A stretch of DNA of 14,905 bases from IMG/VR virus record IMGVR_UViG_641522650_000010; one strand, 5' to 3'. The DNA is from a virus (Duplodnaviria > Heunggongvirae > Uroviricota > Caudoviricetes). The position numbers and the translations under genes are program-made. Positions 4,957 to 6,918 of this stretch are shown piece by piece (position 1 is the first letter of the stretch; every line of letters begins with the position of its first letter). The notes under the pieces were generated by a model that saw only the letters and a program-made list of their open reading frames with translations, had not been told where the DNA came from and did no database searches.

Positions 4957-6651
4957 TCATGCCGCGGCATCCGCGTTGTTCACTTCCACCTTCACACTGG
5001 CAATCAGCAGCGTATATGTCGCCGCCTTTGATATGCCTGTCAGTTGCAGTTTGTCCGCCGCCCCTGATGCCGGAGATTTCACCAGTGTGAACGGCGTCCC
5101 CCGTTTCTCATCCAGTACCGGCGTCACCTGAATGCTGTTGTTTCCGGCAAACTCAAAATCCAGTGTGTGCCATCCGTTATCAAAGACCCCGAACGTATCC
5201 AGCTTCGCATTCGGCTTCTTGTGGTACATCGCGTTCAGGTTCGTCGCATCCGTCTGCAGGAAGAAGGACATCAGCATGTCGTTGCCTTCCTCTGCCAGCG
5301 TCACTCCCTCCGGCAGGGACGACAACTGCCAGTAAATGCCCAGGGCAAACCGATTCGGCACCAGTGAACCCGGCAACTTAAACTGTACGCTCACACGTCC
5401 CCCCTTCTTCAGTAACTCCACTCCCTGTCCGGCTGCATCATGCTCCAGAAACCAGATGTGGTTTTCCGGTTTATTCAGTTGCAGGGCCTTACCTCCCGTA
5501 GCCCCCGCATCACTGACCACCGCTTCAGCAATGTTTTTGTTAACATTGTCTCCGCTCGCCGGTTTGTGATAATAGCGCCAGCCCTGTGATGTCAGGTCTT
5601 CGCCGGACGCCAGCAGACTCATCAGGGTTCGGTTACTGACCGGGGCTTCCGGCTCTCTCTCCGTACCTTCACCGGAAGGTCCGGTGGGCTTCACCGTATC
5701 AGGCTGTTTTCCGGTAATGAATTCAGCGGTTCTCCCGGCATGCACAAGAATCGCCGTTGCCAGACGGTCGGAAATAATCCCACGACGTGCCCATGATCCA
5801 AAATGCGTTTTACGGTCGGCCGTCGTCCAGGTTTTGGCGTCCGTTCGACCACCGGCTCCGTAATACCCAATATCCGCAACATCCGGATCTTCTGACGGCT
5901 CGTTGGTACCCACATTTCGCCCGTTTTCATCCGTCATAAACGGCACAAAGAAGATTTTTTTTGCGGATTTCGTCTTGTATGCACCATACACCGCATCGTA
6001 TTGCGAAGAATAAGTCTGCTTCCAGTAGTAGGTCGTGTCGCCACAAATCCAGGGAACCGATGACGGAGAGCCCCCTAGACACTGACCTCCGAATTCCGAC
6101 AGGTCAGAACGATATTTTTCCACCATGGAATCAAACAGCCCCGGCTGAGTGGCGTATGCACCCTGTTTCAAATCAAACTCGCCCTGCATCCAGACCACTG
6201 CAAGCAGAATATTTTTAGGGTTAGCCTTCAGTGCGGCCTGAGTACGGGTAAGCAGGTCCTTGTACAGTGGCTTATCTACACCCCAGCGTGCCGAGGTCTC
6301 GCTTGCGCCGGTGGATTCGCTGAAGGTACCTTCATCGCCCGCCAAAAATGCAGAACCACCACGGCAGCACGGAACCAGAAGAATACCGGCATTCGCCGGA
6401 ATAAACGGCAACAATTTCTTCGCGATATGTAATCCCTGCCCCACGCATCCATACTGAGCTGCGCTGGCTTTCGGGTGTGAAAACTTACTCAAATCCTGAA
6501 CATCATGCAGGCAGTGGTCCGCAGGAATAATGTCATTGTAGTTACAGGACGCACCACCCGGCGTGACAGTGCTGCGACGCGCCAGCTGTTTAATACGCGG
6601 GTCCGGACGGTCATATGTCTCCGGCAGCGGAAGCCCTTCACCATACGCCAT
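4957..6651 (-). CDS. SGNH/SASA-type sialate O-acetylesterase-like protein (prophage NanS-p-like), downstream fragment starting at an internal ATG
   Basis: 564 aa ORF. The frame continues upstream of the ATG as FVVALAGQSNG-MAYGEG..., i.e. the GQSN nucleophile motif of SASA esterases lies just upstream of this start and just downstream of an in-frame TAA. Long C-terminal region after the esterase core. Confidence 0.7.
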   Translation of the reverse strand: MAYGEGLPLPETYDRPDPRIKQLARRSTVTPGGASCNYNDIIPADHCLHDVQDLSKFSHPKASAAQYGCVGQGLHIAKKLLPFIPANAGILLVPCCRGGSAFLAGDEGTFSESTGASETSARWGVDKPLYKDLLTRTQAALKANPKNILLAVVWMQGEFDLKQGAYATQPGLFDSMVEKYRSDLSEFGGQCLGGSPSSVPWICGDTTYYWKQTYSSQYDAVYGAYKTKSAKKIFFVPFMTDENGRNVGTNEPSEDPDVADIGYYGAGGRTDAKTWTTADRKTHFGSWARRGIISDRLATAILVHAGRTAEFITGKQPDTVKPTGPSGEGTEREPEAPVSNRTLMSLLASGEDLTSQGWRYYHKPASGDNVNKNIAEAVVSDAGATGGKALQLNKPENHIWFLEHDAAGQGVELLKKGGRVSVQFKLPGSLVPNRFALGIYWQLSSLPEGVTLAEEGNDMLMSFFLQTDATNLNAMYHKKPNAKLDTFGVFDNGWHTLDFEFAGNNSIQVTPVLDEKRGTPFTLVKSPASGAADKLQLTGISKAATYTLLIASVKVEVNNADAAA

Positions 6652-6684
6652 ACCGTTTGACTGCCCGGCCAGGGCAACAACAAA

Positions 6685-6918
6685 TTAATACTCCGGGTTG
6701 CTGGTGGTGCTGATAACTGCGCCTTCTCCATCCGACGGCTTCACCACCACAGGTGTGGTGACATCACCTTCCGCCGCAATGGCCTGCATCAGGGTATAAG
6801 GCGTGATGGCCACCGGACTGCCAAATGGCTGCCACCCCTCCTTCAGTTTTTGTGTCAGTCGCTCCGCAAGGTCTGACGGCGACGCCGCCCTGACCACGTC
6901 ATAGTGTTTAAATGCCAT
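6685..6918 (-). CDS. DUF1737-like N-terminal module of the NanS-p-like esterase, terminated by in-frame TAA
   Basis: 77 aa ORF MAFKHYDVVRAASPSDLAERLTQKLKEGWQPFGSPVAITPYTLMQ..., recognised as the small N-terminal domain found on prophage NanS-p esterases. Strong RBS (GGGAGGATTC) before the ATG at 6918. Same reading frame as 4957..6651 (6918-6651 = 267 = 89 x 3). Confidence 0.7.
   Translation of the reverse strand: MAFKHYDVVRAASPSDLAERLTQKLKEGWQPFGSPVAITPYTLMQAIAAEGDVTTPVVVKPSDGEGAVISTTSNPEY

Follow-up and report, generated by a model that had tools for sequence, protein, structure and literature searches.

The 14,905-nucleotide (nt) stretch of Caudoviricetes DNA filed in IMG/VR as IMGVR_UViG_641522650_000010, the whole of which is referred to here as the window, carries a prophage nanS-p gene for a sialate 9-O-acetylesterase that has very probably become an ochre pseudogene, inactivated, as judged from its sequence, by a single C>A transversion in the codon for Tyr78, which turned TAC into TAA. 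The gene lies on the minus strand, where positions 4957–6918 form one frame of 654 codons with this single internal stop, leaving a 77-amino-acid (aa) and a 564-aa open reading frame (ORF) (Table 1). An initial annotation of the window had described the two ORFs as sharing a frame and being parted by the TAA (6687–6685) and 11 sense codons, and we confirmed these coordinates. The nonsense codon sits nine codons ahead of Ser87, the nucleophile in the GQSN motif (Block I of the SASA esterases), and no ATG-started product of the locus contains this motif, because its codons come after the stop and end ahead of the next start. Our reading of the sequence also agreed with the annotation that GQSN is not preceded, after the TAA, by any in-frame ATG, GTG or TTG, and that a product started at ATG 6651 would lack the GQSN serine, since Block I (6666–6655) precedes that start; the sole near-cognate codon in this stretch is CTG (Leu83). 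The Block I codons are thus outside every product of the locus.

Comparison with intact orthologs

A Megablast search of 5,426 complete E. coli genomes, a collection without Shigella, identified 371 records in which the match extended over 80% or more of the 1962-nt span. The best matches were 99.6–99.7% identical and ungapped, and consisted of a single 1962-nt gene for a 'SASA family carbohydrate esterase' of 653 aa (WP_000874454.1), an intact ortholog that occurs in O104:H4 genomes too; the context of the intact orthologs was Q, tRNA, nanS-p, DUF1378 and holin. The nearest intact gene differs from the window at 6 of 1962 nt, a likeness far beyond chance, one of these differences being the C>A change at window position 6685 that distinguishes TAC (Tyr78) from TAA. 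Among complete E. coli records, a 61-mer carrying TAC was found exactly in 242 of 260, while the corresponding TAA 61-mer was found in 0 of 259. IMG/VR contigs, searched with a 40-mer that had a wildcard at the site, yielded 54 copies with TAC and 5 with TAA, and nearly all of the TAC copies with the full gene (38/39) had intact 653-aa ORFs. The initial annotation had proposed an alignment to intact prophage nanS-p genes as a check; the orthologous codon proved to be the sense codon TAC in the closest E. coli genes and in most IMG/VR copies, and homologs that routinely carry a stop and still give an active esterase, which the annotation named as evidence against inactivation, were not what we found, a sense codon being the norm.

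Five of the six differences from the intact locus L001, spread over window positions 5000–6685 and including the nonsense change, are A on the coding strand of the window. Three are C>A (or A against C) and two are G>A; the sites are few and the pattern may be due to chance.

Domain structure and loss of the catalytic nucleophile

The 77-aa ORF matched DUF1737 over the full length of the Pfam model (positions 1–53 of 53; E 3.7e-17; 62.4 bits vs a gathering cutoff of 24), and the 564-aa ORF matched DUF6645 (E 1.3e-42) together with a partial match to SASA, from model position 58 to 157. When codon 78 was set back to Tyr, the SASA match began at model position 7, and residues 73–391 of the reconstituted protein aligned to NanS (YjhS) of PDB 3PT5 (E 1.5e-118). 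The reconstituted 653-aa sequence has a DUF1737 domain, a SASA esterase domain and a jelly-roll domain, now found in two ORFs; the single uninterrupted ORF of about 640–655 aa that characterizes NanS-p is broken by the in-frame TAA at codon 78. The locus does occupy the lambdoid late-region position of nanS-p, downstream of the Q and tRNA genes and, in related loci, upstream of the lysis genes.

The SGNH blocks of 3PT5 are GQSNA (residues 17–21), RGGSAF (120–125), MQGEFD (178–183) and SHFS (His301; ending at residue 303) (PMC10792757). The GQSN serine of the window, which the initial annotation had predicted to be the SGNH/SASA nucleophile, indeed aligns to the Ser19 block of NanS. In SASA enzymes the active site is defined by the Ser and Gln of Block I along with the QGE motif of Block III, and substitution of Block I/III residues eliminates activity (PMC9487903). 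In the translated products of the locus, Block II, Block III and the Block V His are present (RGGSAF, MQGEFD and THFGS), and Block I, with the nucleophile Ser and the neighboring oxyanion Gln, is in neither ORF; a product started at Met90 corresponds to NanS minus residues 1–21, i.e., minus strand beta-1 and the nucleophile. We postulate that translation from ATG 6918, which is preceded by a good GGGAGG, would end efficiently at TAAT and give a peptide of DUF1737 and linker alone. No Shine-Dalgarno sequence was found upstream of ATG 6651, and the 564-aa ORF would be translated poorly if at all; its product, if made, would be catalytically dead, even though Blocks II, III and V would be retained in it, as would the C-terminal domain, which binds carbohydrate.

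The domain order DUF1737-SASA-jelly-roll is the same as in known NanS-p proteins (Z1466/933Wp42 of 933W, gp84/vb_24B_21 of phi24B, and the five alleles in O104:H4), as is the late-region gene order of Q, tRNAs, (stx), nanS-p, DUF1378/DUF826 and holin. Nucleotide identity to a gene of O104:H4 genomes was 99.6%, and the DUF1737 domain was about 60% identical to that of 933W and phi24B NanS-p. Unlike these genes, that of the window has an ochre stop at codon 78 that leaves Block I untranslated, is separated from the tRNAs by a stretch that lacks stx, and lies in an IS-bracketed remnant (IS, insertion sequence). NanS, which E. coli encodes on its chromosome, is a 9-O-acetyl-Neu5Ac esterase with identical Block I–III motifs and a conserved Block V His (THFGS here vs SHFS in 3PT5). 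In contrast to the locus described here, NanS of 3PT5 is an intact, single-domain protein with neither DUF1737 nor a C-terminal domain, and the equivalent of its Tyr10 is the stop codon of the window.

Distribution of the TAA allele in Shigella

The exact 77-aa product was indexed in 292 blocks of an assembly collection and was present on 269 contigs, which bear the name Shigella boydii or S. dysenteriae, the species assignment resting on the names attached to exact protein records. All ten of the loci that we fetched (L004–L013) had TAA; nine came from chromosome-scale NCBI contigs of 4.3–4.8 Mb and one from a 2-Mb contig. The window was 99.95% identical across 10 kb to one of these, L012 (CP026814.1), whose 564-aa product is named as an S. 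boydii sialate O-acetylesterase/YjhS, and by this likeness the window very probably derives from an S. boydii-like genome. The exact 564-aa product of the window had no record, and the window differs from L012 by two private substitutions. The TAA allele, searched as an exact 40-mer, had no match in GTDB species-representative genomes or JGI metagenome contigs; if GTDB files Shigella under E. coli, which has a single representative genome there, the GTDB scan is uninformative. In locus L004 (PTES01000002.1) many genes are split compared to the other loci, including those for Dam, KilA-N, the IS66 transposase and nanS-p (238, 153 and 145 aa). We considered the nanS-p frameshifts of L004 as added decay and set this aside, because the neighboring genes are also fragmented and assembly indel errors are the probable cause.

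The TAA allele is present in at least two prophage contexts. Genome CP026807.1 holds the 77-aa ORF twice, at L005, in the same context as in the window, and at L006, in another prophage, whose replication genes are DnaB/IstB-like (DnaC-type) and whose terminase genes are of the lambda Nu1/gpA type. Binned differences revealed that L006, L009 and L010 share with the L005 haplotype the upstream 2.3 kb (methyltransferase and tRNA genes) and the first 260 nt of nanS-p, including the TAA, and that from gene nt 261 on they differ from it by roughly 30–70% per 150-nt bin. The simplest reading of a shared upstream module and TAA followed by abrupt divergence is one mutation moved by recombination; the nonsense mutation would have arisen once and then reached the second prophage. 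The mosaic breakpoint just 3' of the stop is sharp (8261–8300 in L006, L009 and L010, which is gene nt 261–300), the remainder of the esterase in these loci is a different allele with a 542-aa ORF, and a short patch of the same variants (nt 261–276) also occurs in L005, L011 and L013. The breakpoint agrees with the domain-by-domain mosaicism reported for nanS-p (PMC10462455).

Probable gene decay and alternative explanations

The locus is very probably a case of ordinary gene decay, with an allele that is widespread in S. boydii and S. dysenteriae genomes and an esterase family that is already well characterized. Shigella is a lineage known for neutral gene decay, and the features of its reductive-evolution pseudogenes, which arise by IS expansion, nonsense mutation and frameshift, are repeated here: a single-base nonsense change is common to many genomes of one lineage, and IS2-like, IS3-family and IS66-family insertions surround the locus. 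Nothing in this is distinctive, and the gene is a typical example. Some observations weigh against a decaying pseudogene. The 576 codons downstream of the stop are still open, and the changes on the Shigella branch (one nonsense, four replacement and one silent in a base comparison with polarity taken from L003) give a replacement to silent ratio of 4:1 that is not clearly different from about five to four among intact E. coli alleles, so that relaxed constraint is not demonstrated by these few counts. In addition, the N-terminal piece could remain functional, since its DUF1737 domain is complete and DUF1737 mostly stands alone in nature; this would hold in principle where a cognate capsid exists. 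The 0.3% divergence from the intact allele, together with the long ORF still open after the stop, indicates a recent event. With TAC as the orthologous codon, this bears out the suggestion in the initial annotation that the gene was recently inactivated.

The initial annotation had also allowed for a sequencing error, an explanation to which we attach practically no weight, whether the error is placed in sequencing or in assembly of this record: the same base occurs in the ten fetched loci, which come from independent assemblies, in 5 IMG/VR contigs and on 269 contigs overall, and the TAA is a substitution outside homopolymer runs, which is atypical of long-read error. It is very doubtful that the locus still makes some active esterase through low-level read-through, through suppression or from a start at CTG (Leu83). 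The remaining catalytic blocks and the C-terminal domain are intact and the CTG is in frame upstream of GQSN, but no termination context in E. coli is stronger than UAA followed by U, the three phage tRNAs decode Met/Ile and Arg codons and not stops, and the CTG has no preceding Shine-Dalgarno sequence and, if used, would cost the protein most of strand beta-1, which presents the nucleophile. Nor did the sequence and the tRNA anticodons support a bypass of the stop through frameshifting, another in-frame start or a suppressor tRNA carried by the phage. The third possibility raised in the initial annotation, a natural two-piece arrangement, fails for the esterase half, as Block I is in neither ORF, and is still conceivable for the DUF1737 half: the stop may be kept because it frees a DUF1737 capsid-decoration protein. 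We regard this as unlikely, although several observations are consistent with it. In phi24B, the NanS-p homolog gp84 is a capsid-decoration protein whose DUF1737 (residues 2–57) binds central hexons as a hexamer; gp84 is cleaved between DUF1737 and the esterase, only residues 2–57 stay on the capsid, and single-domain proteins make up about 2528 of the roughly 3000 that have DUF1737 (bioRxiv 10.64898/2026.04.10.717836). Hexon binding by DUF1737 has been reported for gp84 alone. The 77-aa ORF aligns to the N-terminus of 933W NanS-p, with the gp84 processing site falling at Gly51-Thr54 here, and the TAA at codon 78 stands where the linker ends and the esterase domain starts, so that a complete free-standing DUF1737 domain is left. 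A stand-alone 66-aa DUF1737 ORF also occurs at the equivalent position in phage vB_EcoS-733R4 (L015:2386–2744, ON470607.1), where it and a 53-aa ORF lie directly upstream of the holin gene; in this phage, with the esterase and the C-terminal domain both deleted, DUF1737 has outlasted the enzyme independently. Finally, the 234-nt ORF is identical across 10/10 Shigella loci and keeps its strong Shine-Dalgarno sequence.

Several points count against a retained DUF1737 protein. While the 77-aa product, like stand-alone DUF1737 proteins (PF08410), is a complete domain with linker that resembles both the gp84 fragment 2–57 and the single-domain members, it differs from stand-alone DUF1737 genes in having arisen by nonsense mutation within a fusion gene, and the prophage remnant in the window has no cognate capsid genes left. 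Divergence in the flanking sequence is about 0.8%, which predicts no more than about 2 differences over 234 nt, so the identity of the 77-aa ORF proves nothing; from this comparison of the ten Shigella loci we found no evidence of selection on it. The downstream 564-aa ORF has no ribosome-binding site, and the allele is restricted to Shigella, with its neutral decay; complete E. coli genomes lack it, as do 54 of 59 IMG/VR copies. A broader conjecture would combine a retained domain split mimicking the processing of phi24B NanS-p, pathoadaptive loss of the esterase in intracellular Shigella, and spread to the second prophage by selection; by our analysis it is likewise unlikely. If it were true, Shigella would have gained a free capsid-decoration protein while losing a sialate esterase that brings an intracellular bacterium no benefit or does it harm, and the spread via a breakpoint immediately 3' of the stop would reflect selection and not hitch-hiking.

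Implications for annotation

The probable inactivation by the nonsense change has consequences for annotation. The 'DUF1737 domain-containing protein' and the 'sialate O-acetylesterase' deposited for S. boydii and S. dysenteriae are best read as one pseudogene, and inferences of sialic-acid or mucin use should leave the 564-aa product out of any tally of active NanS-p enzymes. Codon 78 with its TAA may serve as a lineage marker for these Shigella prophages, and the locus offers a small natural example of the separability of DUF1737 and esterase described in the phi24B virion work (bioRxiv 10.64898/2026.04.10.717836).

Prophage remnant and insertion elements

The locus lies in a defective prophage remnant of about 9.4 kb that is bracketed by IS elements, as is typical of Shigella (Table 1). 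On the minus strand, the genes follow the order replication-protein-like (HTH_36/DnaD_N), PerC, Dam, RusA, KilA-N, DUF968, Q, hairpin, methyltransferase, three tRNAs and nanS-p. The presence of Q and a tR'-like hairpin upstream indicates that nanS-p belongs to a phage late transcription unit.

Table 1. Coordinates of the nanS-p locus, its motifs and the surrounding prophage and insertion elements in the window.
Feature	Position	Strand	Evidence or remarks
77-aa ORF	6685..6918	(-)	ATG 6918-6916; ends ...TTSNPEY then TAA; DUF1737 (residues 3-50) and the whole interdomain linker
Shine-Dalgarno-like GGGAGG	6923..6928	(-)	4-nt spacer to ATG 6918; sequence reading
Premature ochre stop TAA replacing Tyr78 (TAC)	6685..6687	(-)	next base T, giving TAAT; base-by-base comparison with L001, L002 and L003
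11 orphan sense codons FVVALAGQSNG (TTT GTT GTT GCC CTG GCC GGG CAG TCA AAC GGT)	6652..6684	(-)	in neither ORF
SASA Block I GQSN (residues 85-88), nucleophile Ser87	6655..6666	(-)	aligned to GQSNA 17-21 of 3PT5
Residual 564-aa ORF from Met90	4957..6651	(-)	esterase domain without strand beta-1 and Block I; C-terminal lectin-like domain
SASA Block II RGGSAF (residues 186-191), kept	6346..6363	(-)	3PT5 residues 120-125
SASA Block III MQGEFD (residues 244-249; family QGE motif), kept	6172..6189	(-)	3PT5 residues 178-183
Block V THFGS (residues 371-375; catalytic His373), kept	5794..5808	(-)	aligns to SHFS of 3PT5
C-terminal jelly-roll, lectin-like domain (residues 464-648; Pfam DUF6645)	4975..5529	(-)	PDB 6YP6, E 3.3e-58
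Three phage tRNA genes (Met/Ile-CAT, Arg-TCG, Arg-TCT), no suppressor	7421..7670	(-)	ARAGORN
tR'-like hairpin after Q	9264-9244	(-)	terminator-like site
Antiterminator Q gene	9333..9728	(-)	Pfam Phage_antitermQ, E 1.6e-52
IS66-family element, three transposase ORFs	1-2389		
Truncated IS3-family element, 272-aa transposase ORF	2492-3310		
IS2-like insertion (136-aa and 301-aa transposase ORFs)	3496..4826	(-)	ends TGGATTTGCCCC...GGGGCCAGTCTA; 5-bp duplication CTTAC
IS3-family transposase at far end of remnant	14252-14905		

The gap between the tRNA genes and nanS-p (6919–7420) is about 500 nt of non-coding sequence with terminator-like hairpins at 7406–7389, 7171–7152 and 7043–7028, and is the site of stx2AB in the closest phage relatives (phage 1720a-02 and Stx2a/Stx2c phages). 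The window thus holds a relative, without stx, of the Q-to-nanS-p region of Stx phages. Short as the remnant is, it has two DNA methyltransferase genes, one for a 349-aa N6/N4-type enzyme (7720–8769) between Q and the tRNAs and one of the Dam type (11943–12629) in the early-gene region of replication and recombination; a homolog of the PerC family of regulators is located at 12596–13084.

In intact relatives, nanS-p is followed by DUF1378, DUF826, holin, lysozyme and Rz genes, where the window has IS elements, and neither lysis nor head genes were found in its approximately 9.4 kb of remaining phage DNA. The element at 3496–4826, which we take to be IS2 from its ends, is inserted 130 bp downstream of the nanS-p stop, before the position of the truncated DUF1378 ORF of L012; its absence from this 99.95% identical locus suggests a strain-specific recent insertion. 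L012 (11169–12686), L007 and L008 have a 1.5-kb IS110-family insertion with a 375-aa transposase between the truncated IS3-family and IS66-family elements. This insertion is lacking at the corresponding site of the window (about 2416), and IS content thus varies among very close strains.

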